A stretch of 64,000 bases of DNA from an uncultured Pseudomonadales bacterium (GTDB lineage Bacteria > Patescibacteriota > Microgenomatia > UBA1400 > PJMF01), in the NCBI GenBank assembly GCA_964574595.1, contig CAZNOF010000004.1:17337-81336 (forward strand), written 5' to 3'. The position numbers and the translations under genes were made by a program. Below, piece after piece: positions 30,037 to 48,953 of the stretch (positions are counted from its first letter, which is position 1; each line of letters begins with the position of its first letter). Below the pieces are notes generated by a model. The model saw only the letters and a program-made list of their open reading frames with translations. It made no database searches and had not been told where the DNA came from.

Positions 30037-30474
30037 ATGTTCGAAAACAAAAAAACACGCGGTTTCACGCTCATTGAGTTAATGGTGGTCGTCACAATTA
30101 CGGGAATTATCATGGCCGCTGGAATTATTGCATTCACTAATGCCCAACGTAATTCTCGAGATTCAAAACGCAAAGCAGATGTGGACGCGATTTCCAAAGT
30201 CATGGAACAGTATTTCCAAATCAATCGAGTCTACCCTTTATCACCATACCCTGCGGCAATAGGTTCGTACTTCCCTGCTGGATATATTCCCACTACGCCA
30301 AACGGCGGCTCGTATACCATCACTTCCACTGCTTCAACGTACTGTATTTGTGACAAGTTAGACAAGCCAGCTACCGGCAATGCAACCAGTTTGGGATCTG
30401 GAGGAACTTGTGCCTATGTCTTACAAGCAAACGTTGGAACGGGTGACTATATTTGTACATCACAGCGTCAATAA
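30037..30474 (+). CDS. type IV pilin (prepilin with class III signal)
   Basis: KKTRG|FTLIELMVVVTITGIIMAAGI N-terminal methylation domain. C-terminal disulfide-loop Cys pair. Confidence 0.8.
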   Translation: MFENKKTRGFTLIELMVVVTITGIIMAAGIIAFTNAQRNSRDSKRKADVDAISKVMEQYFQINRVYPLSPYPAAIGSYFPAGYIPTTPNGGSYTITSTASTYCICDKLDKPATGNATSLGSGGTCAYVLQANVGTGDYICTSQRQ

Positions 30475-30570
30475 AAACTGACTACTGGACAACCTATTAA
30501 CAACTATTCTATTATTAAATATACGAAAGAAAAAACTGCCCAATTAACGCAGAAAAAAGGAGAAAGACAT

Positions 30571-31029
30571 ATGTTAAAAAAGACTTTACAGAAGGGTTTC
30601 ACATTAATTGAGTTAATGGTTGTGGTTTCAATCATTGGTATCTTAATGGCTGCTGGTATTTTAGCTTTTAGTAATGCTCAACAAACCGCTCGTGACGCAA
30701 AACGCAAAGCTGATATTGATGCCATTTCTAAAGCTGAAGAACAATACAACAGTCAAAATGGTTCTTACCCATTAGCTGCCAACATCACTAGTGCGATTAC
30801 TAGTTACTTCCCAGCCGGATACTTACCAGTTGACCCACAAAATGCTGGTGCATTTGTTTATACAGTGACGGCCTCTGCTGCTAATCCAAACTTGGCCTAC
30901 TGTGCTTGTGCAAAACTTGAGAAAGCAACAGGAAATGCTACAACAGCCGGTGCTGCTGGAGTATGTGCTTGGGTGACTGCTGCTAACGCAGGAACCGGTG
31001 GCTTCCAATGTGCCGCTCAGCGACAATAG
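30571..31029 (+). CDS. type IV pilin paralog, likely the major pilin (strong RBS)
   Basis: KG|FTLIELMVVVSIIGILMAAGI. AAGGAGAAAGACAT precedes the ATG. Tail CAWVTAANAGTGGFQCAAQRQ is homologous to the previous pilin. Confidence 0.8.
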   Translation: MLKKTLQKGFTLIELMVVVSIIGILMAAGILAFSNAQQTARDAKRKADIDAISKAEEQYNSQNGSYPLAANITSAITSYFPAGYLPVDPQNAGAFVYTVTASAANPNLAYCACAKLEKATGNATTAGAAGVCAWVTAANAGTGGFQCAAQRQ

Positions 31030-31109
31030 TTAGTTAGAATTAATAACAGAAAGAGGGGGAGGAAACTCCCCCTTTTTTGTACCTTTCGAAGTGTTGTATA
31101 ACTGTATAC

Positions 31110-31499
31110 ATGCGTAAAATACTCTCCAAAAATGGCTTTACTTTAATTGAATTAATGATTGTGGTATCACTCATATCTTTATTGATCACCGCCGGTGTCG
31201 TGGCATACACCAAAATCATGGCAAACTCCAGAAATGCCAAGCGCCAAGCTGACTTGGAATCGGTCAAAAGTTCTTTGGTGTTGTATCGAACTGATGTCGG
31301 TTCTTACCCAGCAAGTGTTAGCTTTACAGATATGTCTCCAATTGCTTCCTATATCAGCGTCAAATCTATGAAAGGTCCTCAAGGAGATTCGTATACCTAC
31401 ACTGCTGGTGGTTGTGTGAGTGGTGCCTGTAAGACATTTAGTGTGTGTACTAATTTGGAAAACACCTCGCCATCAAGTTATTGTGTGACGAATCCGTAG
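31110..31499 (+). CDS. type IV pilin paralog 3 (start chosen at MRKILSKNG|FTLIEL)
   Basis: Prepilin N-terminal domain. The ORF-track start at 31077 is probably too early. Confidence 0.7.
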   Translation: MRKILSKNGFTLIELMIVVSLISLLITAGVVAYTKIMANSRNAKRQADLESVKSSLVLYRTDVGSYPASVSFTDMSPIASYISVKSMKGPQGDSYTYTAGGCVSGACKTFSVCTNLENTSPSSYCVTNP

Positions 31500-31508
31500 A
31501 TAAGCCTT

Positions 31509-31991
31509 ATGAATCAATTTGACAATCGCGGTTTCACCCTCATTGAGTTGCTCGTAGCAGTTTCGATTATGGTGCTCATGTTTGGGGTGGGCATTAGTTC
31601 CTATATTCACTTCAATGATAATCAAACGGCAATCGTGACTGGTCAGAAAATTCAGCTGATGTTGCGAACAGCTCAGAAAAAAGCTCGGGTTGGTGATAAG
31701 CCTGCCGGGTGTGGAATTTTACAAGGATACCAAGTGAGTGGCTCTACTGCTGTAAATGCAGTGATAACCCTGAGTGCGATATGCAACTCGGGCACCTTAA
31801 TCAGTGCTGAGACCTATACCCTACCTAATGCAGTTAAGCTTAGTCAGAACCTGTTAATGAATTTTAAAGTACTTACTGGTGGTACTGATCAGCCAGGTAC
31901 AGTAACATTAACTGGAGGAACAGGAACTACTTACTCATTCACCGTGGGTGCGGGTGGAGATATTAGTGAAGGAACAACAGTCGCGCAATAA
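31509..31991 (+). CDS. minor pilin / pseudopilin
   Basis: NRG|FTLIELLVAVSIMVLMFGVGI. Confidence 0.7.
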   Translation: MNQFDNRGFTLIELLVAVSIMVLMFGVGISSYIHFNDNQTAIVTGQKIQLMLRTAQKKARVGDKPAGCGILQGYQVSGSTAVNAVITLSAICNSGTLISAETYTLPNAVKLSQNLLMNFKVLTGGTDQPGTVTLTGGTGTTYSFTVGAGGDISEGTTVAQ

Positions 31992-31996
31992 GAATT

Positions 31997-34900
31997 ATGC
32001 AGAAAAATCGTGGAGCTGCCCTACTAGAAGTGATCGTCGCAATTGGTATTGTGACGCTTGTCATGACCACGATTGTGAGTTTAGTTTCTGTCTCTCTGAA
32101 AAGTGCTTCTTTTGCTCAATCAAAAACGCTCGGCACTAAGTACTCCCAAGAAGGCATGGAGTCACTCAGACAAATGAGAACAGTGTTGGGTTGGGATTCT
32201 TTCTTAGCCACTCTCCAAGCGGATGGAACAACGATTCGCTACTGTTTGCCCACAGTGCCCCGCTCTGCTACCGAATTTGCGGCTTTAACAAATGCAGCTT
32301 GTTCTTCATCCCAATTTGTCGATGCCAAAAATTTGTTTCAACGACAGGCTGATATTACCGTGACCACCAATGCAGGTAGGACCTCTGTGGCCATCACTGT
32401 TAGAACAACTTGGAATGACTCCGGTGTTCAAAAGACTTCTACAATTAATCAACAATTTGAGCAGTACAACGTTGATGACGCTCCTGCCCCGATTATTTAT
32501 AGTCCTTTACCATATATTCCGTATGGTTTTACAGCTGGAATTTGGCTGTATCGACAGGCTATTCCAGTCACTAACTCATCAGGTTCGGCATTAACTGATT
32601 ATCAAGTTATGGCGACTCTGAATACTTCGTCCCTGATCTCAGCCAATAAAATGCAAAGTAACTGCGCGGACTTGCGAGTTACAACTTCTGATGGAACGAC
32701 CAATATTCCCTACTGGATCGAGCCATCTACCTGCAACACCGCCAGCACAAAAGTGTGGATAAAAGTCCCCAATATTCCAACATCAGGTACCACGCTGTAT
32801 GCGATTTATGGCAATGCCAATGCGACTGAAGCAGGTTACTTCACAACTGACGTTTTCGTTCGAAACATTACATCTTTAGGTGCTGCTTACGCAATGAATG
32901 AATCAGTTTGGTCTGGAGCCGCCGGTGAAGTCAAAGATACCAGTGGCAACAACAATAATGGTACCCCAACAGCGGCTAGTATCACGTCTGGGAAGTTTGG
33001 AAATGGTGGACTTTTTAACGGTACTGCATCTCTAGTCACCGTGCCTGATAGTCCGACCGTTGGTCCAACCTCGATTGTCTCAGTAGCAGCCTGGTTGAAG
33101 ACCACGGCTACCAATGTGAATGGTGTGGTTGTGGGAAAAACGACGGGTTGCGCCACAACTGGTTACCTTGTTTGGTTGAATGAAAATGCTGTGGGTGCTG
33201 GTAAACCAGGATTTTATACAAATCCCGGTGGCTGGCTGGTAGCGTCTAACGTCATTAATGACAATAACTGGCACTACGTTGTAACGACATTTAACGGGGC
33301 AACTGCAAATGTATATGTCGACGGAGTCTTATCTATTAGTGCAGCCAGAACTGCAAATTTAGATAATGTGAATCCGCTACAAATTGGTGGCTCAAATGCT
33401 GCCGGAGGTGGCTGCGCGAACCAGTGGTTCAATGGAGTGCTGGATGATGTTCAGATTTACGACAAATATCTCTCAGCAGCTGAAGTAACAGATATGTTTG
33501 GTGCAGGGAAAAACCAAGTCTACTCTACTACCAATTTCCCAAGTGTCGGCTTAGTTCGTAAGCTTGTTGGTGGTGTGAGCGTAGGATCTACTGGTGCCGA
33601 ACAAGTAGGTAGCTATGTATTTAGCAGTCAGGTTGCGGCAGATGTTGCAGTTGTTGCTAACTATAAATTTAATGAAGGTGGTGGTACTACCGTCGCCGAT
33701 TCAAGCGGAAGTGGTCTGACAGGGACCTTTGCCGGAACTGGAACTCACTGGGTTCGGGCTGGACTTGATCACATGGCAGGTACCTTTAATGGTGCTGGTG
33801 ATGGTGTGAGTTTGGGAAGTCCAACCCAGTTGGACTTTGGAGATAATGGACCATTCACTTTTGATGGATGGATCAAACCAAGTCTCTTAAAAGATTATGG
33901 TGGTTTTGTCAGTAAAAATACGGCTGGAAGACTTAATCCATATTCCTATATGACAGTGACGATGGCGAATGGTCGCCTAGCAGCGTACAACGGTGCGAAC
34001 TGGATCGACCTCTGCCCTGCCGGCTCAGTTGTGCAAGGAGCGTGGCAGCACATCGCATTCTCATACAATGGCTCAATTTTAAACGGATACGTGAATGGAA
34101 ATAACTGTGGTTCTGTCCCGTTTACATATACGGATAATGCAGCATATGCCGTTTGGATTGGTAGCTGGTATAGCCCGGTCACAGTCTATGACTTTAATGG
34201 CACGATTGACGAAGTCAAAATTTACAGCGGTGCATTAACAACAGCTCAAGTCCAAGCAGATTACCAAGCTGGTGCAGCAATTTTCAACCCAATATTTAAC
34301 TTAGCCTTCAATGATGGGACAGGTTCAGTCATTAGTGATAGCGGGACTAATAATTTAGATGGAACTTGGGTTGGAACAGGAGCCCACTGGGTAGGCAGTT
34401 CTCCAAACTACGCTGGGAAATTTAATGGGAATGGTGATGGTGTCAATATGGGTACTAATGCTCTCTACAATCTTGGCAGCAGTGAGCCATTTAGTCTTGA
34501 GGGCTGGGTTAAACCGGCGGTCATGAAAGACTATGCTGGCTTTATTTCAAAGGATGCAGCTGGAAGAACTTCTCCTTACTCATACTTAACAGCCATCATG
34601 GCGGATGGTCGCCTCTTTATCTATGACAATGTTGTTGGCTGGCACAGTATTTGTGCTGCTGGTTCAGTGACCGTAGGAAATTGGCAGCATATTGCCATTA
34701 CTTTTGACGGCGCAACGGTTAATGGGTATGTGAACGGAGTGGCGTGTGGTAGTGTTGCTGGATTTACTTACGTTGACACACCAACACATTATGTAAACAT
34801 TGGTAGCTGGTCAAACGGTCTTGTCTACGACTTTAATGGCTTGATGGATCAAATGTCGATGTACGACTACAAGCGGTCCGCCACTCAAATTCTGGCTGAT

Positions 34901-35884
34901 AAGAATGCCTATACACCTCCTGCAAGTAATGTGTGGGCGTATCGAGTTCCAATTACCATTACTAACACGTATGGAAGTACCTTAAGTAATTACCAGGTGA
35001 AAACGGTTATGAATACTGCAGCTCTTGTGACTGCTGGAAAGATGAATGCTGATTGTTCTGACCTGCGGATCACCGCCTCTAATGGGACTACTGCCCTTCC
35101 CTATTGGGTAGAAACTGGTACAAACGGTTGTAATACGGCTGCTACTGCAGTTTGGGTAAAAGTTCCTTCTATTCCGACATCTGGAGTGTCACTGTACGCA
35201 TACTATGGAAATGGTCTGGCAACTACCACTGAAGATGGAAATCAGACCTTTGATTTTTTTGACGATTTTTCCGATACAACTTTGGATTCAGCGAAGTGGA
35301 CATCTTCAGCTGGGGCGGCAGGCTATACCGTGAGTGGTGGAATTTTGACTGTCCTAACAGGCTCAATTTATTCAAAAGCCCCGGTGACTGCTTCTGTACA
35401 GAATGAACAATTTGAGATGCGAAATGCTTGGGGTTCAGTCTACGTTTATTATTCAGGACTGACTCTTTCAGAAACGAGTGCTGTCGCAGGAGGAAACGCT
35501 GGTGCTAGTACGATGGCAATGCTTCAAACGGTGGGTGCTAGTCAACCAGTGGCAGCTTACTCCTCCGATGGTGTAGCCGCCGGGTACAATTTGCAGAGCG
35601 CTGTTGCTTACAGCACTCCGGTTGCGGCAACATACTACATCACTGGAATTGGATACTCACCTACGGCTTTGACCACCTATAAAGATCGAGTTGCTGTGAA
35701 TTCTGCAGCTACATCAATAGGTTACTCTCCATATTTAAGTTTAGGTTTCTTTTTTGGATCCGGTGCAGGCACACAAGATGTCACCAACTTGTTTGTCGAC
35801 TTCGTAGTCGCCAGAAAATCAGTCACTCCAGCACCAGCTGCTGCCGTCTCCACAGAACAAACAGGTACCTGGTCAGGGTTATAA
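31997..35884 (+). CDS. giant (1295 aa) MshQ-like minor pilin/adhesin: prepilin N-terminus, 2 DUF2341-like domains, 3 LamG (ConA-like lectin) domains
   Basis: N-terminus NRGAALLEVIVAIGIVTLV. Repeated blocks F(N/T)G.GDGV..G.......PF...GW.KP...KDY.GF.SK...W.H.A....G....GYVNG..CGS...FNG..D...(I/M)Y. Two blocks Y(R/A)...I.TN..GS.L..YQV....NT..L.....M...C.DLR.T.S.GTT..PYW.E......T....VW.KVP.IPTSG..LYA.YGN. Confidence 0.7.
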   Translation: MQKNRGAALLEVIVAIGIVTLVMTTIVSLVSVSLKSASFAQSKTLGTKYSQEGMESLRQMRTVLGWDSFLATLQADGTTIRYCLPTVPRSATEFAALTNAACSSSQFVDAKNLFQRQADITVTTNAGRTSVAITVRTTWNDSGVQKTSTINQQFEQYNVDDAPAPIIYSPLPYIPYGFTAGIWLYRQAIPVTNSSGSALTDYQVMATLNTSSLISANKMQSNCADLRVTTSDGTTNIPYWIEPSTCNTASTKVWIKVPNIPTSGTTLYAIYGNANATEAGYFTTDVFVRNITSLGAAYAMNESVWSGAAGEVKDTSGNNNNGTPTAASITSGKFGNGGLFNGTASLVTVPDSPTVGPTSIVSVAAWLKTTATNVNGVVVGKTTGCATTGYLVWLNENAVGAGKPGFYTNPGGWLVASNVINDNNWHYVVTTFNGATANVYVDGVLSISAARTANLDNVNPLQIGGSNAAGGGCANQWFNGVLDDVQIYDKYLSAAEVTDMFGAGKNQVYSTTNFPSVGLVRKLVGGVSVGSTGAEQVGSYVFSSQVAADVAVVANYKFNEGGGTTVADSSGSGLTGTFAGTGTHWVRAGLDHMAGTFNGAGDGVSLGSPTQLDFGDNGPFTFDGWIKPSLLKDYGGFVSKNTAGRLNPYSYMTVTMANGRLAAYNGANWIDLCPAGSVVQGAWQHIAFSYNGSILNGYVNGNNCGSVPFTYTDNAAYAVWIGSWYSPVTVYDFNGTIDEVKIYSGALTTAQVQADYQAGAAIFNPIFNLAFNDGTGSVISDSGTNNLDGTWVGTGAHWVGSSPNYAGKFNGNGDGVNMGTNALYNLGSSEPFSLEGWVKPAVMKDYAGFISKDAAGRTSPYSYLTAIMADGRLFIYDNVVGWHSICAAGSVTVGNWQHIAITFDGATVNGYVNGVACGSVAGFTYVDTPTHYVNIGSWSNGLVYDFNGLMDQMSMYDYKRSATQILADKNAYTPPASNVWAYRVPITITNTYGSTLSNYQVKTVMNTAALVTAGKMNADCSDLRITASNGTTALPYWVETGTNGCNTAATAVWVKVPSIPTSGVSLYAYYGNGLATTTEDGNQTFDFFDDFSDTTLDSAKWTSSAGAAGYTVSGGILTVLTGSIYSKAPVTASVQNEQFEMRNAWGSVYVYYSGLTLSETSAVAGGNAGASTMAMLQTVGASQPVAAYSSDGVAAGYNLQSAVAYSTPVAATYYITGIGYSPTALTTYKDRVAVNSAATSIGYSPYLSLGFFFGSGAGTQDVTNLFVDFVVARKSVTPAPAAAVSTEQTGTWSGL

Positions 35885-35915
35885 ACATTCAGCCAAAAGT
35901 GAGAAAAGGATAAGA

Positions 35916-35945
35916 GTTATTAAATAAATGAAGTTATTTAATAAC
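35916..35945. terminator. AT-rich 12-bp-stem hairpin between convergent pilus operons
   Basis: GTTATTAAATAA-atgaag-TTATTTAATAAC. It overlaps the stop of the minus-strand pseudopilin gene. Confidence 0.45.
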
Positions 35946-36495
35946 TTCTAATTGCCACACCCGTTTTAAAGTCTTGGGTTAAAGTGGTTGGAGTATTTGC
36001 TGCAGTATCATCTTTTGATAAGGAGAAGCTGGCGGTTACATATGTCCCGTAATTTGTGCCAGCTTGAGAGCAGTCAAACTTTAAATTTGACAGCACTGTT
36101 GCCGGTGTCGTTAAGTAACTGGCTGTGGCTGCAGTGGCTGATTTTGAGGCAATTAAGCTGTTCACCGAACCTAATGTAGTGATTCCCCCATCAATCTCTT
36201 TAAAACTGATTGAATCCATGTTGTTCTCACAAATTGGATCAGTATTTGACTGAGGATTTTGGACGACAGAAATTGCATTGCGTAATAGGAACTCAATCTG
36301 ACTTAAAGCGTAGTCCCCTTCTGTTTTGACCTCACTCACCTGGGTGCCCTTACTATTTGACCGGATAGTCGACAAAAATAGCCCAGTGGCGGCGATCATC
36401 ATAATCACTGTAATGGTAGTGGCTACAACCACTTCTAGGAGTGTAAAACCGGCTTGACTATAAATAACTGAGGAATTGGCGGGTAGTTTTTTCAT
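35938..36495 (-). CDS. pseudopilin / minor pilin (prepilin-type N-terminal cleavage/methylation domain)
   Basis: QAG|FTLLEVVVATTITVIMMIAATGLFL. Confidence 0.7.
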   Translation of the reverse strand: MKKLPANSSVIYSQAGFTLLEVVVATTITVIMMIAATGLFLSTIRSNSKGTQVSEVKTEGDYALSQIEFLLRNAISVVQNPQSNTDPICENNMDSISFKEIDGGITTLGSVNSLIASKSATAATASYLTTPATVLSNLKFDCSQAGTNYGTYVTASFSLSKDDTAANTPTTLTQDFKTGVAIRSY

Positions 36496-36536
36496 TAGGC
36501 AGATACTTCTTTAAATAATAATAGCACAGAACAGGC

Positions 36537-37220
36537 TCAACTTATTTCGTTTCTTAGGTCTTGTTTGAACATATCATCTAGTCCAAGGTCATGTATGAGA
36601 TTCGGATGCTCTTGATTTATCTTCTGAAGTGTATCAATGAACCATTTCCACTCCTCTTGATAATTATCTTTTGATAGCAAGAAAAAGCACAATTCGCTTA
36701 CGGGATTCTTTTTTATTTCTAGAGGAAATTGATCAAACAAATAGAAGTTACCTTCTGCAACCCCTTTTACCGCAGTTTCAGGATAACCATATAAAATGCC
36801 ATCCAGAGATGATGAATGGCTTTGCTTAATCTTTTCTAAGCTGTCTTTATTGTCTGCAAAATGAAGGAAAAAATAGTGCCTTTCATCTTCGGGCTCATCT
36901 GGAGATTTAATTTCCCCGCCATCATCATGCGTGTCAACAATAAACCCAAGACTTTGTAATTCTGACACAAGATCTGCCATGCATTCTGGCCGACTTGAAT
37001 ATCCAATTTCTTCAGCATATTCAAAAGGGAATGACTTCTCACTTAAGTGGCAAGCCCCTTGTTTCATAAATAATATTTTTACTTTAAGTCTATTATCAAA
37101 ACATAACTTTATTACTGGATAATTTGAATCTGTTTCTTCAACAAGCTGCTCATGATGCGGTGAAAAATGTTCTTTTGATGGAAGCGGAGGCAGAGAGCTA
37201 TGCTTAGATTCTAATGTCAT
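36537..37220 (-). CDS. hypothetical cytoplasmic protein encoded in a locally AT-rich segment
   Basis: 227-aa ORF between the pseudopilin and the Cys-rich surface protein gene. No motifs. Confidence 0.4.
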   Translation of the reverse strand: MTLESKHSSLPPLPSKEHFSPHHEQLVEETDSNYPVIKLCFDNRLKVKILFMKQGACHLSEKSFPFEYAEEIGYSSRPECMADLVSELQSLGFIVDTHDDGGEIKSPDEPEDERHYFFLHFADNKDSLEKIKQSHSSSLDGILYGYPETAVKGVAEGNFYLFDQFPLEIKKNPVSELCFFLLSKDNYQEEWKWFIDTLQKINQEHPNLIHDLGLDDMFKQDLRNEIS

Positions 37221-37242
37221 ATAAGCACAATAAGGAAGTTCT

Positions 37243-40158
37243 CTAGTTCGTCTCTTGCCATAAGTATAATGGTTTCGTCATTTTCTCTGGCACGGTTACG
37301 AGGAAGTCGGGTCTGAAAGTGAACGTTTCAATTGCCTGGGTATTCCCTTTCAAGACGTTGGCGTTATTGAAAGTTCTTTGCAGTTGTACTCCACCCCATC
37401 CTACGAACGTACCTTGTCCGATAAACTTCAACTCATCTGCAGGCGCATTACTTTCAGTAATAATTGAGCCATTGGCAATGTAGACACCGGCTACACTTGG
37501 AGCACTTGAAGTGTTAGATCCGAGAGACTTATCAAAGATAATATTGCCTTTGACGATGAAAGCTAAGAAAGCACCTTGAGCAACTTGAATTGGTTGAGTA
37601 ATTCGTAAATCACCATTTACGAAAACCACGATTGAGTCGGTGGTATTCAGTGTCCAAGTAGTATTAATCGTAACGTTTCCATTGGCATAGTAACCGTGAG
37701 TTAAGCTAGACGCTGGCTGAGCCCCAGTAAAGTCTGGAGTGGTGCCTGTGCCAATACCATAGAGTTGACTAAAGTAGTTGTAATCTTCTCTTGGACCATT
37801 CAACTTCATCCCCTCAGCATGGGTGTTCGTTGCGCCTTCGTTGAGGTATGAATATGATGTCGTAACATCAGCCGTAGAATCAATTGCTCCACCAGCCGAT
37901 AAACTTGTACTATCACTATTAGCTGTGCCAGCTAAATCCTTCATGGAAATTGCCGCTACACAAGTTGCTGCATTGGCACAGGTCAGCGGAATCTGGGAGG
38001 TTATTGCAGGTCCTGCTGCGGCACCAGAATAGACGTAGCCGTTGGCCGTTTGCCACCAACCTGCCGGAGCTTGGGTTAGGAAAAAGTTAATGTTGCCAGC
38101 AGGAACTGAAATTCCAGAGTATGAACAGCCTGCCGGACAAGTACATCTATATCCTGCTGGGGCGGTTAAACTCAGAATGGAGTTTTGGTCATAGTTAAGA
38201 TTCGAGAAGGAATACGCAGTTCCGGAAACGGTTTTTGTCGTTGGTGTGCCATTAATTGTGGCAGTCATGGTAGTTGAAGGTAAGTTTAATAGTGGTTCGG
38301 CGGTGCTACAGATGCCGGTGTCATCCTGGAAGAAAGTGCCACTAAATCCTCCACCTAATGTAAAGGTGATTGGAGTAGTCCAAGGGCTATATAACGTTGA
38401 TCCACAGCTGGTGTTGATGGCCCTGACGCGCCAGTTGTAACTGGTCACTCCAGCATCGGCAGTGAAGGTGTAGTTGTTTGAAGCGGCTGGAGCTGGACAG
38501 TGATGATTGGCCACTGTGCATTCCTGACCGGCGGCTGTGCCAGTTGGAAAGACTTGGACTTCATATAGATCCGCTTTAGCAACTGGACTCCAACCTAAGG
38601 TGATTTGACCATTGGTTGGGACGACGGCATATCCATTCGGTGGATTCAAGCCAGTTGGAGTCGTTGGGGTTCCGGCATCGATATTTGAACAAGTACCACT
38701 ACAGCCGTCACTTTGACCACAAGCTGATGTACAGCTTGGCGTACAAGATGGTGGACAAGATCCACAGTCGTGCGGACAGCTGCCACAGTTCTCACCATTA
38801 TTACAAGAGTTATCACCACAGTAAGGTCCTGAAGGAGGGGTACAAACACCACAGTCGCCAGCACAACTTGAACAAGTCTCTCCACCGGCACAAACTCCGT
38901 TTCCACAACACGGAACTGCCGGACATGTAACCGTGTCAACTTGTCCGCAACTACTTGTTCTTGTTTTGGTTCCGGCTACGCCACAAGTATTAGCGTTGGT
39001 ACATGCTGAGTATGCTGGCCAAGTACAGGTTGGTGCGCTACATACTCCAATTCCACATCCGCAGCCAATGACTGCACAGGTTGACCCAGATTGGACGCAG
39101 GCTTCATCTGGTGACGATACTTGGCAAGTTTGTGGAGTATATCCCCCGCATGTACCTTTTCCTGCTCCACATGTACCTGTGCAGTAATCACCTGCACCAG
39201 TTGTTGTTGAAACAGTGATACACGTTCCATCATATGGTCCACATGCAACAGAAGTACAATCTTTACCGCTGATTGAGCATGTTTTTGAAGTTGTAGTGAC
39301 TCCAGTACAGTATCCATATCCACCAACAAGAACACCACAACGAGCACCTGAACATGCCGCATATGCTTGAGGAACTATTAAATTCTTTAAAGAAAGCAAT
39401 GAATTAAAAAATGCTTGCGTAGTTGGCGTAGTTATTTTAAAGATAGGAGCACTGACGTTTTTAGTCTTTTCCGCATAAACATTTGTGGCACTAGGGAATG
39501 TGGGTATTTCTTTATCATAGAAATTATAAAAAAAGCTTTTCAGAAAAGATGATGTGAGATACTCAGATGGAGTTAGGCCAAATTGGGTTGCTATTTCTGG
39601 ATCAATATAAACAGATATCTCAAATGTATCACCATTGGCAACACCACCGAAAAATGCGTTAGCAATTTTTCCCTTTACAACTTCGTTCATCAGACTATGC
39701 AGTGGAAATTTTTGAGTACTTGAATAATCGGCTGGCAATAACGATGCCGGTAAAAATGTGACTCTGATTCTTTTATAATCAGCTTTCCGCACTTTACTTT
39801 GCATGGCACCATTTTTGGCAACTGAATACTCTATAAATTCTTTATTGGCTAAAGGATTCAGACCTAAATCTTGAAGGTAACTAATTAATTGTTTTTGATC
39901 AACTTTATTATCTGCAATTTGATATTCAGGAATTTTACTAATTGCTTCAAATACCGTTTGATCAACAACTACAGCTGCCTGCCCATTTACATCAGGATTT
40001 CCGGTTAGTTTGTTTAAGCCAGGAACATTATCTTGTAGCGAAATAATTGCTGGAGATTGTGGTAAGTTATGAGATAACGCCAAGAATCTTAATGCAAAGA
40101 TGCCAACTAATCCCAAGAACAGGATAAAACTCAAGGCAATTATGACTCTTTTTTTCAC
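37243..40158 (-). CDS. large (971 aa) Cys-rich cell-surface protein with an N-terminal signal anchor
   Basis: N-terminus MKKRVIIALSFILFLGLVGIFAL. Central region with dozens of CxxC/CG repeats (CGDNSCNNGENCGSCPHDCGSCPPSCTPSC...). Ig/FN3-like segments. Confidence 0.55.
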   Translation of the reverse strand: MKKRVIIALSFILFLGLVGIFALRFLALSHNLPQSPAIISLQDNVPGLNKLTGNPDVNGQAAVVVDQTVFEAISKIPEYQIADNKVDQKQLISYLQDLGLNPLANKEFIEYSVAKNGAMQSKVRKADYKRIRVTFLPASLLPADYSSTQKFPLHSLMNEVVKGKIANAFFGGVANGDTFEISVYIDPEIATQFGLTPSEYLTSSFLKSFFYNFYDKEIPTFPSATNVYAEKTKNVSAPIFKITTPTTQAFFNSLLSLKNLIVPQAYAACSGARCGVLVGGYGYCTGVTTTSKTCSISGKDCTSVACGPYDGTCITVSTTTGAGDYCTGTCGAGKGTCGGYTPQTCQVSSPDEACVQSGSTCAVIGCGCGIGVCSAPTCTWPAYSACTNANTCGVAGTKTRTSSCGQVDTVTCPAVPCCGNGVCAGGETCSSCAGDCGVCTPPSGPYCGDNSCNNGENCGSCPHDCGSCPPSCTPSCTSACGQSDGCSGTCSNIDAGTPTTPTGLNPPNGYAVVPTNGQITLGWSPVAKADLYEVQVFPTGTAAGQECTVANHHCPAPAASNNYTFTADAGVTSYNWRVRAINTSCGSTLYSPWTTPITFTLGGGFSGTFFQDDTGICSTAEPLLNLPSTTMTATINGTPTTKTVSGTAYSFSNLNYDQNSILSLTAPAGYRCTCPAGCSYSGISVPAGNINFFLTQAPAGWWQTANGYVYSGAAAGPAITSQIPLTCANAATCVAAISMKDLAGTANSDSTSLSAGGAIDSTADVTTSYSYLNEGATNTHAEGMKLNGPREDYNYFSQLYGIGTGTTPDFTGAQPASSLTHGYYANGNVTINTTWTLNTTDSIVVFVNGDLRITQPIQVAQGAFLAFIVKGNIIFDKSLGSNTSSAPSVAGVYIANGSIITESNAPADELKFIGQGTFVGWGGVQLQRTFNNANVLKGNTQAIETFTFRPDFLVTVPEKMTKPLYLWQETN

Positions 40159-40221
40159 TCATCAATCTTAAATTTTTTCCCAAGTCAATACAAGTAGAAA
40201 AAACAAGAGCTTGCTCTGATG

Positions 40222-42474
40222 TTATTTTGCAGCTGGCTCAGGCGCGATAATGTCTAGAAAATCAAAGTCGACATTCGGATCCTTAGAGTTCAATCCCTTA
40301 ACAACAGAATAGATTTGTTTGTCAGGAGAAACTTGAGCAGCTGAGTTAGGCATCGTCTCTAATTTTAATGCTGCCAAAATAGCAGTACTTATAAACTGTC
40401 CATAACGAGTTTCAAATGGAATTACTTTTCCGACACTATCAGTATTATTTGACCAGCCATTTTCAATAAATCGGGATGATGCAAAGATTACGACCTCATC
40501 TTCACCGTTTGGTCCTTTGCCATAAGCAAATTCCATGACAGGTACGCCTGCTCCGATGAGCAATGTTTGCCCTGTTCGAACAGTGAGTCCCATTTCTTCT
40601 GCTTTTTTCTTCATCTCCACACCAGATTTAGACATAACAATTTTGATATCTTTGATGGAGTTAGCAGGCATATTCTTGAGGTCTAATCCAACGTCTTTTA
40701 ATGCATCATTGATAGAACCGGTGACTTGTAGATCTGTGGCGCCTTCCATTCCAATCACACTAATGCGGAAGGTATGGTTGGCTCCATTTTCATCAGTTAA
40801 TAACGTTTCAAGTCCGGTCGTAGCACCAATCACGGATAGTTCTTCTGGACTCAAGGCTCTTTGGTTAGTGTATTGCTGGACTTCTAGTTTGAAATCGACC
40901 GGGGTTTCCGTCAAAGTAAGTTCTGGGAAAGCGGTGTTAGGTACATCTGTTGGGACTGCTGTTGCTGGCGCTGCTTGAGCACCTTCCAGAGGTTTTCCTA
41001 CTGGTGCTACAGACACGATCATGTCCTTAGCTGGGTTGCCAACTTCAGGTTGAGCAATGGTCGCGATAATTCTTTTTTGTGGATCTAGTAGTTCATCAAT
41101 TGTAACAACAACAGAGTCGGTTAAAGCTAACGTTTTTTGACCAGGTTTAATGAGTCCAGCAGTTTGTTCAGCACTTACTAAATCAATTGCTGCGATTGGG
41201 GCAATGAAATCGCCTTCCTTGGCAACTGGGAAAAGTCTTTGAGACCCATCGTCCAGATGCATAACGAGAGAATTAGGTTTCATGTTAGTGGTAGTTTCTT
41301 GACCATTATTAGTTGAAATTAGATTCACTTCTTGAACAATCTTAATGGCAATTGTGAATTGATCAGCAGCATAGTAGACAGCAACCCTAGAGACTGTATC
41401 TCCAGCCCTTGTGTTAAGGTCTTTAACATATGCTTTTGCATCTGCCATTTGTTTATCAAAATCAGGTCCATAACTGCCAAAGTCTGCATTGTCATTTAAT
41501 ACGATTTCATAGTAATCACTTCCGTAGGCTCTAGCTTTTGATCCAGGCAGGGCGTCTTGAGCGTGCGTCAGAAACTGATCTATTACCGGGCGACGATCTG
41601 ACCCAACGAGTCCACCTTTTGGTAAATCAAACAACGTAAAGTTGGCAGGTAAAAATGTCTCTGAACTTTGTAAATTTGGAGACAATTCACTAGATTTACT
41701 TGTAGAATCAACAATTTTCCCATCATCTGCTGGAGAGATAGGTCTACCACCACCATCGATACCTTTATTGGCGGGAGAAATACCTTTGTCTGCCAATTTT
41801 GCTTGAATCAGGTTTAAAGAGGCAAGAATATTTCGATCAATGGAGTTTGTAAGAACTCTAACTTCTTCTTGTGATTGGTCGTTCATTGTTTGCGTTTGAG
41901 TAACATCAGGAAGCTTGTTATCTGCTCCTGCTACGGCGTCCACTGCCCCACCGAGGAATGCAGCAGTCATGACTACGCCAATTGCTTTCCAAACACTTGG
42001 GAAACGAGGAGGTCGTTGTGCTTCTTTAAGTGAGTCAAAAGCGGTTTGACCATTCAAATGTAACAGCATATCTAGTCCGGCAATGGTATTTTCCAATTTT
42101 CTTTGCAAATTGCGGATCATGATGAAAACCGATGACTTTAACTCTGCTTCACCTGGTTGGCGGAGCAAGGTTGTCTTGGATTCTAAGAAACCCATTAAGA
42201 AGTCATAAACACCATTTACTTTTTTCTGAGTTGAAATGAGTTCTGATAAGACACTTTTAATCTCGTCTGGGGTGTCTAGTCTAAGGTCTGAGTCTACGGG
42301 GACTTCAGTTTCTGATAAAGCAGATTTAATGACGTTCAATACGCCTGGAACAGTAGCAGTTTCCTGTCCTTTATTATTTATGATTTTCTCTACATCATTC
42401 CCATAAAACTCAACACCAGATTGTTTATCTGTTTGCATATATCTCGATCTTCTTGGTTCGTATTCTTTTAACAT
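40222..42474 (-). CDS. hypothetical bitopic membrane protein (750 aa), first gene of the minus-strand pilus-associated operon
   Basis: Single TM helix (WKAIGVVMTAAFLGGAVDAV) about 160 aa from the N-terminus. Large C-terminal extracytoplasmic region. Confidence 0.5.
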   Translation of the reverse strand: MLKEYEPRRSRYMQTDKQSGVEFYGNDVEKIINNKGQETATVPGVLNVIKSALSETEVPVDSDLRLDTPDEIKSVLSELISTQKKVNGVYDFLMGFLESKTTLLRQPGEAELKSSVFIMIRNLQRKLENTIAGLDMLLHLNGQTAFDSLKEAQRPPRFPSVWKAIGVVMTAAFLGGAVDAVAGADNKLPDVTQTQTMNDQSQEEVRVLTNSIDRNILASLNLIQAKLADKGISPANKGIDGGGRPISPADDGKIVDSTSKSSELSPNLQSSETFLPANFTLFDLPKGGLVGSDRRPVIDQFLTHAQDALPGSKARAYGSDYYEIVLNDNADFGSYGPDFDKQMADAKAYVKDLNTRAGDTVSRVAVYYAADQFTIAIKIVQEVNLISTNNGQETTTNMKPNSLVMHLDDGSQRLFPVAKEGDFIAPIAAIDLVSAEQTAGLIKPGQKTLALTDSVVVTIDELLDPQKRIIATIAQPEVGNPAKDMIVSVAPVGKPLEGAQAAPATAVPTDVPNTAFPELTLTETPVDFKLEVQQYTNQRALSPEELSVIGATTGLETLLTDENGANHTFRISVIGMEGATDLQVTGSINDALKDVGLDLKNMPANSIKDIKIVMSKSGVEMKKKAEEMGLTVRTGQTLLIGAGVPVMEFAYGKGPNGEDEVVIFASSRFIENGWSNNTDSVGKVIPFETRYGQFISTAILAALKLETMPNSAAQVSPDKQIYSVVKGLNSKDPNVDFDFLDIIAPEPAAK

Positions 42475-42737
42475 AATTACTCTACTCTCTGTTGTTCTAC
42501 TTGGTCAATCGATGTTTGAGCATAAAGCTCATCCGTTTAAATATTATTCTAGGCCTTTGAATTGCGAAAAAATTATTTTCCGCCAAGACATAGTATATTG
42601 ACTTGATGTAATTATACCTCTGGGCTTATAATTTTACATACATAGCCGTTACACACGATTTTCAGCAGTTATTGCTTGGTATGCAGGTCAAAAAGATCTG
42701 GAATACATATCTACTATGTGTAAAAAACTATCAAAAG

Positions 42738-42790
42738 TGTTATAATTTCCTCTTGAGTAACGATCTGGTTAAATTCAGATCTCGTTTTTT
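42738..42790 (+). promoter_or_regulatory. extended -10 promoter (TGtTATAAT) followed by the inverted repeat GATCTG-n8-CAGATC
   Basis: TGTTATAAT at 42738..42746. IR at 42762..42781. A second GATCTGG lies at 42695. Upstream of the methyltransferase gene in a 340-bp AT-rich spacer. Confidence 0.35.
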
Positions 42791-42813
42791 ATTATGGGTT
42801 TAATTTAAATCAC

Positions 42814-43872
42814 ATGGCACTGCACGAAACGCTTCGACGATCTGATATGGCATACCAAAATGGCAAACGAGCCACTGGAGAAGTTGCTGCGGCTAAAGAG
42901 GTGACTTACAGGTATCTGGATGAATCTTGGGATGTAACCAGTGCTCAAAAAGCTACAACAATTAAGTCATATGATTCTGCAGCGAATCTATATCAGGAGC
43001 AAAATGGTGGACTTGAAATAATAAAGGTGATGTGGGAAAAAGTTTTCAAAGATTACAAAGAAACAATAATCCAACTTCCAGAAAGAGCAAAAATATTTCT
43101 TCCGGGTATTGGTACATCAAGGGACGCTTTTTTTCCAACTTTGCTTAGGCCGGGCATAAAAGTAGTTGGCTCTGATCTTTCTCCTGGGATGTTAGCTGTT
43201 GGTCAATCCAAAATTGAGCAGCTAACCTGGACTGATATAAAAGAAATTGGTGATTTTATCCGTGAGCTTGATCCTATGGGCGGTCGATGGATGATCAACA
43301 GGTTAATTGATTCACTCCAGGATAATGCGGATATTCTTTCATATGAGAAGGGATCTGAGGGTTCCGCAAGTGAAAGAATTGACATTCAAAAGCTTTTTAA
43401 GATGGAGGAGGTAGTGAAAAGCTTAGTGAAAAGAATTTTCTTGTTGCAGGAAGATCTAAGACACCTTTCGTATGCTGACAATACTTTTGATATGGTGATG
43501 GCGATTGCTGTATATCCCCATTTGTCAAAGAGAGACGTTCTTCCAGCAGTTTTAGAATCTTTAAGGGTTTTAAAACCTGGCCAGATTTTCTATTTCGACC
43601 TAAGAGCTGATCTTGCAAATTGGTATAGTAAGCCTAAAGGTCGAACTTTTGAAGACAATGTCTTGAACGGAGGAAGTCGTTTTTTCAGCACTTATACCTT
43701 ATCCGAAGTTCTAGAACTCATTACTGAACTAAAAAGAATAATTCCTCCAATTGAGGTTACATTTGATAACCACTTTTCTCCTCACTTTGACACTCATAAG
43801 CCTCCCTTCTTGCAATTTCAAATTAGAAAAGCAAAAGAAGTTACTCGTCCTTCTCTTAAGAATGCGCCTTGA
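42814..43872 (+). CDS. class I SAM-dependent methyltransferase
   Basis: Motif I-like FLPGIGTS. Acidic post-I VVGSDL. Motif II NTFDMVMA. Motif III LKPGQIFYF. Confidence 0.6.
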   Translation: MALHETLRRSDMAYQNGKRATGEVAAAKEVTYRYLDESWDVTSAQKATTIKSYDSAANLYQEQNGGLEIIKVMWEKVFKDYKETIIQLPERAKIFLPGIGTSRDAFFPTLLRPGIKVVGSDLSPGMLAVGQSKIEQLTWTDIKEIGDFIRELDPMGGRWMINRLIDSLQDNADILSYEKGSEGSASERIDIQKLFKMEEVVKSLVKRIFLLQEDLRHLSYADNTFDMVMAIAVYPHLSKRDVLPAVLESLRVLKPGQIFYFDLRADLANWYSKPKGRTFEDNVLNGGSRFFSTYTLSEVLELITELKRIIPPIEVTFDNHFSPHFDTHKPPFLQFQIRKAKEVTRPSLKNAP

Positions 43873-44741: not shown

Positions 44742-45254
44742 ATGTCAGAAGTTGTTCGTACTCGCGAAAGATTTAAACTATCTTCGTCAGTTTTTTTATT
44801 ATTTTTACAGGGTAATGAAATTCTTTTTTTATTGAGATCAAATACTGGTTGGTTAGATGACCATTACAGTCCTCCAGGAGGTGTCAAAGAACCAGGTGAA
44901 ACACTCCCTGCAGCTGCAATCCGAGAAGCCACAGAAGAAGTTGGGTTAACGGTTTTGCCAGAAAATCTTATGTTGGCTCATGTCATGCATAACTTTACTA
45001 GTGGCCAAGAATGGATTGCCGCTTTTTTCATTACAGAAAAATGGAGTGGTACCCCAGGGATAAAAGAACCACATAAACATTCGGATCTTAAATGGGTGCA
45101 TATTGAAAATTTGCCCGAAAATACATCACCTTATGTAAGACAGGCCATTGAAGCATATCTTGAAGAGATGCCTTATTCAGAATTCGGTTGGAATATTCCT
45201 GCTGACTCAAAAGATGAGGAATATGATCATAGACATGTGCCAAGAAAGAAGTGA
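44742..45254 (+). CDS. NUDIX hydrolase
   Basis: Nudix box GGVKEPGETLPAAAIREATEEVGL (Gx5Ex7REUxEExGU). TTGACA-17-TAAATT promoter-like sequence upstream. Confidence 0.8.
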   Translation: MSEVVRTRERFKLSSSVFLLFLQGNEILFLLRSNTGWLDDHYSPPGGVKEPGETLPAAAIREATEEVGLTVLPENLMLAHVMHNFTSGQEWIAAFFITEKWSGTPGIKEPHKHSDLKWVHIENLPENTSPYVRQAIEAYLEEMPYSEFGWNIPADSKDEEYDHRHVPRKK

Positions 45255-47094: not shown

Positions 47095-47910
47095 ATGGAA
47101 AATGTTTTTCCGAAGCGTCGTGCTACTCAATCAGGCCAAATTGGTATTATTGTCGTGCTAATTATGGTGGTCTTGCTGACAATTGGTTTGTCTTTAGCAA
47201 GTCGAACCACCAAAGAAGTTGCGTTATCTACTCAAGAAGAAGAATCTACCCGTGTCTTTAATGCGGCTGAAGTTGGTGTGGAGCAAGCGCTCTCTTCTAA
47301 TCTCGCTTTTGCTGGTGATGTGTACACTTCAAATCCAATTACTCCAGCTGGTTCCAACTCTACTGTGACGTACACCATTAATAAGCAGTACCAACTCCAA
47401 ATGCAGATTTTTCAAGGTGTGAGTGCCATGATTCAGCTAACTGATGCAACGCATCCGACGCCACCTTCATCACTTTATACGGATTGGTCAATCGAAAATA
47501 GCTGTGCAACGCAAACTCCGGCAGCATTGTTAGTCTCGATTTACTCAGTTGATAACACTACATTACCACCTTCTGTAAAAGTCAGATATCAAACGTTTGA
47601 TCCTTGTTCTAGAGGAAATAACTTCAACACGGCTGGGATTGCTGCTGGTCAAAATGGCTACTTTAAGCGAGCAACTATTTCCTTACAGCCAAGTGATAGT
47701 TTTGTTCGAATAAAGCCAATTTATAACGACACCAAAATGTTAGTTCAACCAAGTTCAGGTCAGATGCCAGTTCAGTCTTATGCCATTCGTTCTACGGGAA
47801 ACAACAACGGCGGTACGGAAAACCGGAACGTCCAGGTTGTGAGAAGTTTACCCTCAGCTCCGTCCATCTTTGATTATGTCTTATTCAGTGGAAGTACTAT
47901 CGTTAAGTAG
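47095..47910 (+). CDS. PilX_N-like type IV pilus minor assembly protein
   Basis: N-terminus QSGQIGIIVVLIMVVLLTIGLSLASRTTKEVALSTQEEESTRVFNAAEVGVEQAL resembles the PilX N-terminal domain. Sits immediately upstream of pilMNO. Preceded by the conserved pre-ATG motif. Confidence 0.5.
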   Translation: MENVFPKRRATQSGQIGIIVVLIMVVLLTIGLSLASRTTKEVALSTQEEESTRVFNAAEVGVEQALSSNLAFAGDVYTSNPITPAGSNSTVTYTINKQYQLQMQIFQGVSAMIQLTDATHPTPPSSLYTDWSIENSCATQTPAALLVSIYSVDNTTLPPSVKVRYQTFDPCSRGNNFNTAGIAAGQNGYFKRATISLQPSDSFVRIKPIYNDTKMLVQPSSGQMPVQSYAIRSTGNNNGGTENRNVQVVRSLPSAPSIFDYVLFSGSTIVK

Positions 47911-47933
47911 TGGAGTTAAAGGAAGGCCTGCCT

Positions 47934-48950
47934 ATGCCACAATTATCTGTCGCAATTGATTTGGGAAGTTATGCAGTTAAAGCGTTACAAGTCAGACAAG
48001 GAAAAAAACTTGTTATTGAGCGTGCAATTGAAGTGCCCAACTCTGTTGGTGTCAGCAGTCCAACAGATGATGTAACAGCCGACAAACTCGTTCAACTTAT
48101 TACCAATATCTTTACTGACCATAAACTCAGTAAGGCTGATGTTCGATTAGCTCTTCCAGAAGCTCTCGTTTCCACCAAGATTATCTCCATTCCAGTCTTA
48201 ACTGATGCTGAGCTAGCTTCTGCAATCAACTGGCAGGCTGAGCAGCATATTCCTATTCCACTTGATGAGTTATCTCTCGAGTACCAAGTCCTCTATCGAC
48301 CAGATAAAAAGAATCAAAATGAACAAATGCGGGTCTTAATGGTGGGTACTCGAAAAGTCTTAATTGAAAAATATTTAAATGTTTTCCTAAGAGCTGGCAT
48401 TGAACCAAGTATTCTGGAAACCCAAACGATCGCTTTAATTCGAGCCATGCAGTTTACCGCTGAAGATGCGCCTACGCTCGTCGTGAACATGGGTGCGGTT
48501 TCCACTGATTTAGCAATTGTGTATCAAGGTGAGTTGCGATTTGTTTACACCTTTAACAGTGGTGGCCAAGTTCTCACCAGAACAACTGAACAAGCTGTGC
48601 AGCTCGATGCCAAACAGGCTGAAGAGTACAAACGCACTTACGGGTTAGATGGTTCTCAATTGGCTGGCAAAATGCGCGATATTCTATTGCCACCAGTCAA
48701 GACAAGTATTTTAGAGATGCAAAAAGCACTTCAGTTCTTCGCGTCTCAAAACACCTTGGATCCTGTCAAAAGAGTCTTATTGGCAGGCGGCGGCTCTCAA
48801 TTACCTGGTCTATCCCAATTTATTGCTGAGCAGCTGAACTGTGAGGTGCTGATGGCTGCCCCATTTACCAATGTAGAAGGTGAAATTCCGGCTGCAAACC
48901 AGCTTGCCTATGGAGTGGCAATGGGATTGATCTTGAAACCGTTAAAATAA
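47934..48950 (+). CDS. pilM: type IV pilus assembly protein PilM (actin-like ATPase fold)
   Basis: Start moved to the ATG with AAGGAAGG Shine-Dalgarno 7 nt upstream. N-terminus MPQLSVAIDLGSYAVKALQV. About 340 aa. Confidence 0.75.
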   Translation: MPQLSVAIDLGSYAVKALQVRQGKKLVIERAIEVPNSVGVSSPTDDVTADKLVQLITNIFTDHKLSKADVRLALPEALVSTKIISIPVLTDAELASAINWQAEQHIPIPLDELSLEYQVLYRPDKKNQNEQMRVLMVGTRKVLIEKYLNVFLRAGIEPSILETQTIALIRAMQFTAEDAPTLVVNMGAVSTDLAIVYQGELRFVYTFNSGGQVLTRTTEQAVQLDAKQAEEYKRTYGLDGSQLAGKMRDILLPPVKTSILEMQKALQFFASQNTLDPVKRVLLAGGGSQLPGLSQFIAEQLNCEVLMAAPFTNVEGEIPAANQLAYGVAMGLILKPLK

Positions 48951-48953
48951 GCT

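Follow-up and report, generated by a model that had tools for sequence, protein, structure and literature searches.

We analysed a four-gene unit on the minus strand of a 64,000-nucleotide (nt) stretch of DNA (hereafter the window; positions 17,337–81,336 of contig CAZNOF010000004.1, assembly GCA_964574595.1) from an uncultured bacterium of the Patescibacteriota (Microgenomatia; UBA1400; PJMF01). The unit sits inside a single type IV pilus locus. Its last gene encodes a core minor pilin of that locus, displaced and inverted, and ahead of it stand genes for proteins of 750, 971 and 227 amino acids (aa). Our reading, which we put forward tentatively, is that the 971-aa protein is tethered to the membrane, that it and the 750-aa protein, a companion membrane protein, are co-expressed with the displaced pilin, and that they would probably cooperate with the pilus in cell contact.

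The prevailing view is that Patescibacteria live attached to other microbes, with type IV pili as the best-documented organ of contact. In the mechanism that we propose, the minus-strand unit would be the distal end of the pilus locus after rearrangement, its core minor pilin having been inverted and placed at the end of the unit behind a lineage-specific surface module made up of the 750- and 971-aa proteins. Held in the membrane by its N-terminus, the 971-aa protein would extend outwards as a disulfide-braced stalk, an fn3 domain, an immunoglobulin (Ig)-like domain and a beta-rich head, with the conserved C-terminal head as the working or docking end. The module would be made together with the pilus and would cooperate with it in contact with, or adhesion to, other cells.

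A displaced minor pilin in a split pilus locus

The four open reading frames (ORFs) of the unit lie head-to-tail and converge on the plus-strand pilin operon, at the coordinates given in a preliminary description of this DNA (Table 1) and with short gaps between them. The gaps measure 63 nt (between the 750- and 971-aa genes), 22 nt (971 to 227 aa) and 41 nt (227 to 185 aa), which is compatible with one transcription unit, and the four ORFs are probably co-transcribed. No paralogs of the four proteins were found elsewhere in the window.

The 185-aa product of the last gene, singled out in the preliminary description as a pseudopilin for its GFTLLEV motif, scores above cut-off with both PF07963 (N_methyl; 25.9 bits, cut-off 21.2, residues 13–36) and TIGR02532 (18.1 bits, cut-off 16.3). 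It carries a class III signal (GFTLLE; QAG/FTLLEVVVATTITVIMMIAATGLF) and a hydrophobic helix (Kyte-Doolittle hydropathy, KD, 2.26), and a prepilin peptidase and assembly genes are present in the same locus. Its sequence identifies it as a genuine class III signal protein and as a type IV (pseudo)pilin. Equivalog models all remain far below their cut-offs (ComGF, 21.7 bits against 80; GspJ, 15.0 against 64.85; PRK08808, 17.2 against 295), and a profile of the protein matched PDB entries through the N-terminal helix alone. Since such scores do not assign a GspJ, PilW or ComGF type, we turned to gene order instead.

Gene order was compared across homologous loci, designated here L001, L002 and so on. 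The colinear metagenomic locus L039 reads PilB, PilT, PilC, pilin, PilD, pilins, a PilV-like gene, the ortholog of the 185-aa pilin, a PilX_N-like gene and PilM, continuing to a PilO-like gene, with no cysteine-rich gene among them; in L037 and L038 the ortholog also follows the PilV-like gene on the same strand. Its place in L039, flanked by the PilV-like and PilX_N-like genes, assigns the 185-aa pilin to the PilW/GspJ/ComGF position and makes it a core minor pilin of a single pilus system. The arrangement in the window is an inversion and an insertion that split this operon between its PilV-like and PilX-like genes.

Both sides of the split are present in the window. Upstream, the plus strand carries a complete type IV pilus set, with PilD (A24_N_bact and Peptidase_A24), PilB, PilT and PilC at 23738–29070, a 301-aa membrane protein, four pilins (30037–31991) and a 1295-aa pilin. 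Downstream, past five housekeeping-type genes, the PilX_N-like, PilM and PilN/PilO-like genes resume at 47095–50341, in an order also found in L001, L002 and L039, so the unit lies inside one pilus locus and not beside it. The housekeeping genes within the split locus include a methyltransferase, a nucleoside deoxyribosyltransferase-like gene, a NUDIX gene and a cytidylate kinase. The view of the unit as a second pilus operon, taken in the preliminary description, is not borne out by these gene orders: its pseudopilin is the displaced, inverted core minor pilin of the one system.

Synteny of the 750-like, 971-like and pilin genes extends to L001, L002 and L036. The 185-aa pilin is the best-conserved member of the minus-strand unit (73–74% identity in these three loci), and the family alignment contains two invariant cysteines, C89 and C142. 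A metagenome search that started from the pseudopilin was flooded by the generic GFTLIE pattern and recovered only three full-length relatives.

The 301-aa protein (29080–29985), encoded between PilD and the pilins, contains 10 Cys, spans the membrane with a predicted helix at its N-terminus and matches PKD weakly. It is kept in most of the pilus loci recovered (L001, L002, L005, L018, L020, L022, L023, L025, L031 and L037; not detected in L039) and may be an undescribed lineage-specific pilus component.

The 971-aa protein and its likely partners

The layout of the 971-aa protein (Table 1) was derived from an alignment with 12 relatives, from composition and from an AlphaFold model. Its earlier characterization as a signal-anchored protein with CxxC/CG repeats and Ig-like segments stands: the N-terminal helix is strongly hydrophobic, the protein contains 48 Cys, and fn3 and Ig-like folds were recovered both in the model and by Foldseek. 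The helix probably acts as an uncleaved anchor, as judged from the sequence. Searches with the Cys-free N-domain that follows it gave L001 and L002 as the sole matches. Residues 247–268 align with the signal-peptide cleavage regions of shorter, unfused homologs and appear to be a relic signal peptide.

The stalk accounts for 39 of the 48 Cys (residues 266–505, the first at 269). Two repeats in it (418–439 and 447–468) follow the pattern CGDGxC...ETCxxCxxDCGxC, and the full motif, CGDGxCxxGETCxxCxxDCGxC, recurs in relatives. Residues ~378–417 form a degenerate TSP1-like motif (CTWPAYSAC...CGVAGTKTRTSSC), which in the window copy has no Pfam match. When the six-Cys TSP1 pattern WxxWxxC...CGxGxxxRxR...C was tested, a segment of the relative P0003 fitted it, and one member of the alignment matches TSP_1 (PF00090) at E = 2.2e-4. 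The EGF- or disintegrin-like character first attributed to the repeats was not recovered: at E ≤ 1 the Cys-rich segment matched no Pfam family, EGF and disintegrin included, and the CGDGxC-type and degenerate TSP1-like motifs take its place.

Foldseek searches with the 971-aa model returned nothing but tandem fn3/Ig proteins, tandem fn3 proteins matching the fn3 region at E = 4e-6 to 1e-3, with a sequence score for that region below cut-off. The C-terminal domain, which is 276 aa long, was modelled at a predicted local distance difference test (pLDDT) of 78–93 for residues 790–930, and its periodic short strands (823–926) in the model suggest a beta-solenoid. A 35-sequence profile of the domain gave only noise against PDB sequences. 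The sole recurrent profile match is DUF7305 (PF23981), a family of unknown function, hit by 9 of 35 members at E ≤ 0.01 (best 7.3e-6). For the window protein the score is 21.1 bits over the whole length and 23.7 bits for the domain alone, below the curated gathering threshold of 27, and the match covers residues 820–896 and only the middle of the profile (positions 47–128 of 185); by sequence comparison, the domain would be at most a distant relative of DUF7305. Literature searches turned up nothing of relevance on DUF7305/PF23981 or on thrombospondin-like proteins of Patescibacteria.

The 971-, 750- and 227-aa proteins gave nothing above threshold against Pfam, NCBIfam, PADLOC, PHROGs and PDB sequences. 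The statement that they have no recognisable family thus holds for the 750- and 227-aa proteins, and for the 971-aa protein with sub-threshold fn3 and DUF7305 matches only. Structure prediction and remote-homology searches on the two large proteins, proposed in the preliminary description, led to no known family, with fn3/Ig folds in the 971-aa protein and no fold match for the 750-aa protein.

The 971-aa gene also shows a step in third-codon-position GC content (GC3), from 0.24–0.25 over residues 1–505 to 0.41–0.43 over residues 506–971. This step fits a mosaic origin of the gene or a recent swap of its variable front half.

Homologs of the 971-aa protein have characteristic upstream partners. 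A small ORF (~100–270 aa) with an N-terminal transmembrane helix lies directly upstream of the domain gene, often overlapping it, in 17 of the 21 loci that possess such an ORF (for example L005, 1277–1828, and L022, 8707–9444). It is usually preceded by a gene for a single-pass protein of 300–850 aa, and the two partners accompany the domain gene with or without pilins nearby. The window and its three closest relatives have no such small gene; their 971-type protein has an extra anchor, the N-domain and the putative relic signal peptide. The nearest unfused relative is L005; there the small ORF reads in one frame with the domain ORF and only TAA-ATG stands between them, so that the loss of one stop in an arrangement of this type would produce the architecture of the 971-aa protein. 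From position, topology and reading frame we infer that the 971-aa protein arose when two genes that elsewhere stand separately side by side were fused, one for a small anchored protein and one for a secreted protein rich in Cys. A fusion of this kind would suggest that the two joined parts interact physically.

The 750-aa protein has one weak hydrophobic segment (residues 164–182, KD 1.85) and no N-terminal signal. Its designation as bitopic is plausible in that there is a single segment, which is itself marginal. The model contains a helical N-terminal part of ~160 aa, presumably cytoplasmic, an unstructured stretch around residues 164–182 and a ~560-aa alpha/beta outer part, and comparison with PDB folds gave no match below E = 0.03. 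An exhaustive HMMER search of 1.84 billion representatives retrieved four cluster representatives. Identity is 34% to the protein of L001 and 27% to that of L036, with neighbouring genes at 60–91%, and we would describe the protein as a membrane protein that evolves fast and is restricted to its clade.

The divergent methyltransferase gene (42814–43872) keeps its place beside the 750-aa gene in L001, L002 and L036. At 36% identity to its L001 ortholog it is as fast-evolving as the 750-aa protein.

The C-terminal-domain family and its relation to pili

The C-terminal domain defines a family of proteins with a fixed end and a variable front. Its relatives (n = 48) come nearly all from Patescibacteria; informative labels mostly name this group (Woesebacteria, Collierbacteria, Paceibacterota), and about half of all labels read uncultured Pseudomonadales or Gammaproteobacteria, which we take as mislabelling. 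The domain ends 0–1 residues from the protein end in 45 of them and no more than 7 residues from it in the other three, and the region before it ranges from ~80 to 1150 residues. Identity to close relatives is 81, 71 and 64% in the domain, compared with 39–58% in the N-terminal parts. Nearly all full-length homologs contain 24–62 Cys, with fewer in the split L010 and L014 fragments and in L033; these Cys, together with secretion signals and fn3/Ig folds, indicate a surface protein. One distant match carries DUF4215. A phage tail-fibre origin of the domain was considered and dropped, as viral contigs contained no relative of it.

Further cases bear on the spread of the family. One member (L004, 9671–11797; 36% identity over residues 416–970) lies outside Patescibacteria, on a 2.18-Mb contig labelled Anaerolineales, with a single-pass protein upstream and no pilins nearby; it could have been acquired horizontally, or the family could be more widely distributed. 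L014 contains tandem genes (9647–12225; 492 and 358 aa), each with the conserved C-terminal domain, and one metagenome-assembled genome holds two unlinked copies (L013 and L021). These tandem and unlinked copies indicate that the family grows by duplication within genomes.

The domain is present at 32 loci of a genome collection dereplicated by species, with recovered flanks of up to 10 kb that are much shorter or missing on short contigs. In eight of these the domain gene lies beside pilin genes. A neighbour-joining tree of the domain resolved the pilus-linked copies into two coherent clades and one singleton. Across nine loci in the two clades the domain gene ends 4–21 nt before the start of the pilin gene or overlaps it by 19 nt, and the pilin is the same pseudopilin in both clades; the co-occurrence with pilin genes in related genomes that the preliminary description had suggested looking for is thus found. 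Two other pilin-adjacent arrangements were observed, a domain gene convergent on the pilin gene in L037 and a domain gene followed by two other pilin-like genes in L009. Members of the second pilus-linked clade (L020, L022, L023 and L025) have a cleavable-looking signal peptide and no anchor. The pilin link is recurrent and tight where present and is not a family-wide property.

A number of results weigh against the proposed cooperation of the 971-aa protein with the pilus. No pilin-like ORF was found within the recovered flanks of 24 of the 32 species-level loci, so the family is not intrinsically tied to pili; the preliminary description had held that homologs in unrelated, non-pilus contexts would tell against it, and this is the case for those 24 and not for the eight beside pilins. 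The pilus loci L038 and L039 have no C-terminal-domain gene. The neighbouring 1295-aa LamG pilin is, by its sequence features, a more obvious candidate pilus adhesin than the 971-aa protein. The models are poor overall, with a mean pLDDT of 55 for the 971-aa protein (confident for the fn3 and Ig-like domains and residues 790–930) and 57.8 for the 750-aa protein. Comparison of the N-domain with the small upstream proteins by phmmer, iterated hidden Markov models, hhalign and BLASTP detected the transmembrane helix alone, and the 750-aa protein has no detectable homology to the large upstream proteins of other loci. The idea of a three-gene module and that of the fusion are argued from position, topology and reading frame.

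Some of these results would also suit an envelope protein that works independently of the pilus, as a general Patescibacterial surface, cell-wall or glycan-binding protein, possibly an enzyme, whose adjacency to the pilin came about by rearrangement at a recombination-prone junction. Most members of the family have housekeeping genes around them and no pilin close by, and the upstream partners travel with the gene regardless of pilins. The junction itself is a variable hot spot, occupied by the 227-aa gene here, by 174- and 249-aa genes in L001 and by a CHAP and PD40 gene in L023, and the split pilus locus contains housekeeping genes as well. Such a history is harder to reconcile with the finding that one pilin family neighbours the domain gene in two clades, with C-terminal domains only ~30% identical between them, and that pilins adjoin it in at least two other arrangements as well (L037 and L009), since recurrent adjacency is unlikely to arise by chance in genomes of roughly 1000 genes, and with the 4–21 nt spacing or overlap, which implies co-expression. 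We regard a pilus-independent role as rather unlikely, but as a serious rival to our reading.

A closer involvement in the pilus has also to be weighed. In type IVa pili the genes pilW, pilX and pilY1 form a neighbourhood, and the C-terminal domain of PilY1 is a seven-bladed propeller. By analogy, the 971-aa protein might be a tip adhesin that uses its C-terminal domain to dock, either on the PilW-like minor pilin or on a minor-pilin priming complex. The Cys-rich protein would then sit at the pilus tip or nucleate assembly, its variable N-terminal part would bind the host, and the 750-aa protein would serve as an assembly or loading factor. The large non-pilin gene directly upstream of a pilin in the PilW/GspJ position resembles the pilY1 neighbourhood, and the tight spacing in two clades suggests translational coupling. 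Like the PilY1/PilC proteins of Pseudomonas, Neisseria and Myxococcus, the 971-aa protein is a large, presumably secreted non-pilin that combines a conserved C-terminus with a variable N-terminus and may act in adhesion. Members of the second pilus-linked clade, being anchorless, would need a partner to stay on the cell. In Saccharibacteria, an adhesin role has been proposed for large accessory pilus proteins of a non-canonical type (PMC11623550).

The differences from PilY1 are substantial. The preliminary description had held that a match to families such as the PilY1 or PilC adhesins would tell against it, and neither gave a Pfam or NCBIfam match at E ≤ 0.1; the 971-aa protein also has no vWA domain, and its modelled C-terminal domain consists of short periodic strands and not of a propeller. 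Its strong N-terminal anchor is hard to square with travel to a pilus tip, and about three quarters of the family members are not near pilins. The profile of the C-terminal domain showed no relation to the PilX_N-like protein or to the pseudopilin family profiles, though docking needs none. We consider a PilY1-like tip adhesin, attractive as the analogy is, improbable. The same doubt applies to its extension to the whole family, in which the C-terminal-domain proteins would do the work of PilY1 specifically in Patescibacteria and with a fold unrelated to it; the pilus would present the diversifying Cys-rich part for host recognition, the bitopic and small anchored proteins would load or retain it, and unlinked paralogs would be spare or alternative heads.

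A part in another filament or secretion system, either as a component of the donor-strand-exchange Pam pili or as cargo pushed through the wall by a pseudopilus, seems to us scarcely credible. The radiation has at least one non-type-IV pilus, built of Ig-like subunits with membrane-anchored chaperones, and the 971-aa protein has Ig-like and fn3 domains. By the published description, however, Pam pilins are proteins of 39–55 kDa with a beta-sandwich and a truncated Ig domain, and their chaperones have C-terminal transmembrane helices (bioRxiv 10.64898/2026.03.03.709456). The architectures here are unlike these, the 971-aa protein being Cys-rich and N-anchored and the 750-aa protein having an internal transmembrane segment.

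The proposed membrane-tethered surface module has precedents of other kinds. Modular pilins such as Streptococcus sanguinis PilB and PilC and Nanosynbacter lyticus PilX1 and PilX2 (PMC11623550) combine lectin-like, fn3 or Ig modules with a type IV pilus in cells that have no outer membrane, and the 1295-aa LamG pilin next to the unit is a protein of just this type. Unlike them, the 971-aa protein has no class III signal and carries its modules on an ordinary N-terminal transmembrane helix instead of a pilin helix. Large Cys-rich surface proteins have already been noted in this radiation (Peribacteria; PMC4736985). They too are signal-bearing and strain-variable, with a proposed role in attachment and a weak resemblance to Myxococcus Cys-rich repeats, but they were described as a class only, whereas the family here is defined by a 276-aa C-terminal domain, upstream partners and, in some clades, linkage to a pilin. 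Patescibacteria possess extracellular disulfide-bond machinery, and their pili are thought to be central to host contact (bioRxiv 10.1101/335083; PMC11623550). As far as our searches show, the C-terminal-domain family, its upstream partners, the inferred fusion and the clade-specific coupling to a PilW-position pilin have not been described.

Four items are open to experimental test: a surface family whose C-terminal domain is fixed and whose Cys-rich front varies, its likely upstream partners, the proposed gene fusion, and the recurrent link of the family to one minor pilin. If the pilin link is functional, the family offers a concrete candidate for host recognition in those members of the group that can be cultivated; otherwise the 971-aa protein is a lineage-specific surface protein of an ordinary kind, encoded next to a pilus operon that was rearranged.

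The variable junction and the rest of the window

The 227-aa ORF occupies a slot between the Cys-rich gene and the pilin gene. Its product is acidic, with no hydrophobic segment and no match in Pfam, NCBIfam, PADLOC, PHROG or PDB, and a search of 5.8 billion proteins returned only itself. The codon-position pattern (GC1 > GC2 = GC3) and the length of the ORF in AT-rich DNA suggest a genuine gene. None of the four close relatives has the ORF in this slot: in L002 and L036 only gaps of 4 and 19 nt, respectively, separate the two neighbours, and in L001 two unrelated genes of 174 and 249 aa stand there. In L023, a gene for an 824-aa protein with CHAP (peptidoglycan hydrolase) and PD40 beta-propeller domains (12038–14512) directly follows the pseudopilin at the same convergent junction; its product may be a host-wall-degrading accessory.

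With the slot empty in two loci and other genes present in L001 and L023, the junction is variable and the 227-aa ORF is a lineage-specific arrival, as the preliminary description had suggested in calling it a possible later insertion. We picture it as an orphan gene that may have landed in a recombination-prone junction. The AT-richness on which that proposal drew is poor evidence: the GC content is low (GC 0.36, GC3 0.285) and unremarkable among window genes (z = −1.4), several of which, along with the 5' half of the 971-aa gene (GC3 0.24–0.25), are as AT-rich or more so. Around the 227-aa gene we found no adjacent recombinase and no flanking repeat beyond chance-level matches of 9–18 nt.

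The A/T hairpin ascribed earlier to both convergent units is real. It lies between the stop of the 1295-aa plus-strand gene (35884) and the pseudopilin gene, begins 31 nt past that stop and overlaps the pseudopilin stop codon (35938–35940). It forms a more stable fold than shuffled sequence does, with z = −3.0 on the plus strand and −2.1 on the minus strand. A G+C-dependent terminator scan did not call it. Because its stem contains no G-C pairs, we grade the hairpin as a candidate bidirectional terminator that is weak at best. At the other end of the unit, a promoter-like site was found on the minus strand (42508–42479), and such sites are no commoner there than in shuffled sequence.

Table 1. 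Coordinates of the minus-strand unit, of the segments of the 971-aa protein and of neighbouring pilus genes in the window (res, residues of the 971-aa protein).
Feature	Position	Strand	Basis or description
1295-aa modular pilin	31997-35884	+	PilV/GspI-like N-terminus, LamG and DUF2341 modules; last gene of the plus-strand pilin operon
Inverted repeat/hairpin	35915-35946	none	perfect 13-bp all-A/T stem (35915-35927/35934-35946), 6-nt loop
185-aa (pseudo)pilin gene	35938-36495	-	N_methyl motif and gene order
227-aa acidic, soluble orphan ORF	36537-37220	-	no relatives; slot empty in L002 and L036
971-aa Cys-rich protein gene, GTG start	37243-40158	-	
Conserved C-terminal domain (res 701-971)	37246-38058	-	WWQ...GEGTFVGW...RPDF...WQETN; beta-rich, short periodic strands; defines the family
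Ig-like beta-sandwich, conserved CTCPxGCSYSG motif (res 601-700)	38059-38358	-	alignment, model, Foldseek
Predicted fn3 domain (res 506-600)	38359-38643	-	PF00041, 20 bits (cut-off 25); pLDDT 74-85
Disulfide-rich stalk (res 269-505)	38644-39354	-	39 Cys, conserved Cys columns, low pLDDT
Putative relic signal peptide, ...LIVPQAYA/AC (res 247-268)	39355-39420	-	alignment columns 260-300; model helix 247-261
Cys-free N-domain (res 28-246)	39421-40077	-	alignment; confined to the four closest relatives
Predicted N-terminal transmembrane anchor (res 5-27)	40078-40146	-	KD 2.94 (res 5-23); model helix 2-27
750-aa putative bitopic protein gene	40222-42474	-	
AT-rich divergent intergenic region	42475-42813	none	GC 0.33-0.35; promoter of the minus-strand unit expected here
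PilX_N-like gene, 271 aa	47095-47910	+	PilX_N, E = 1.3e-3
PilM gene	47910-48950	+	PilM_2, E = 4.5e-46
PilN/PilO-like genes, 184 and 278 aa	48954-50341	+	PilO, E = 0.035

Outside the pilus locus the window is ordinary chromosome, with gyrA, gyrB, ppa, holB, rnc, recG and a class A penicillin-binding protein gene. Within the split locus, the NUDIX gene (44742–45254) has no counterpart in the syntenic regions of L001 or L002 and represents a second small indel. Near the start of the window (1302–10097), a tyrosine recombinase gene (1302–2252) and a tRNA-Ala gene (3420–3496) are followed by minus-strand genes for proteins of 994, 513 and 642 aa without a family match; the region could be an integrated element or another orphan module. 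Three plus-strand ORFs of 149, 122 and 127 aa (20174–21548), located between holB and an SH3_3 surface protein gene, have no Pfam match and, at a GC of 0.28–0.33, the most deviant composition in the window.

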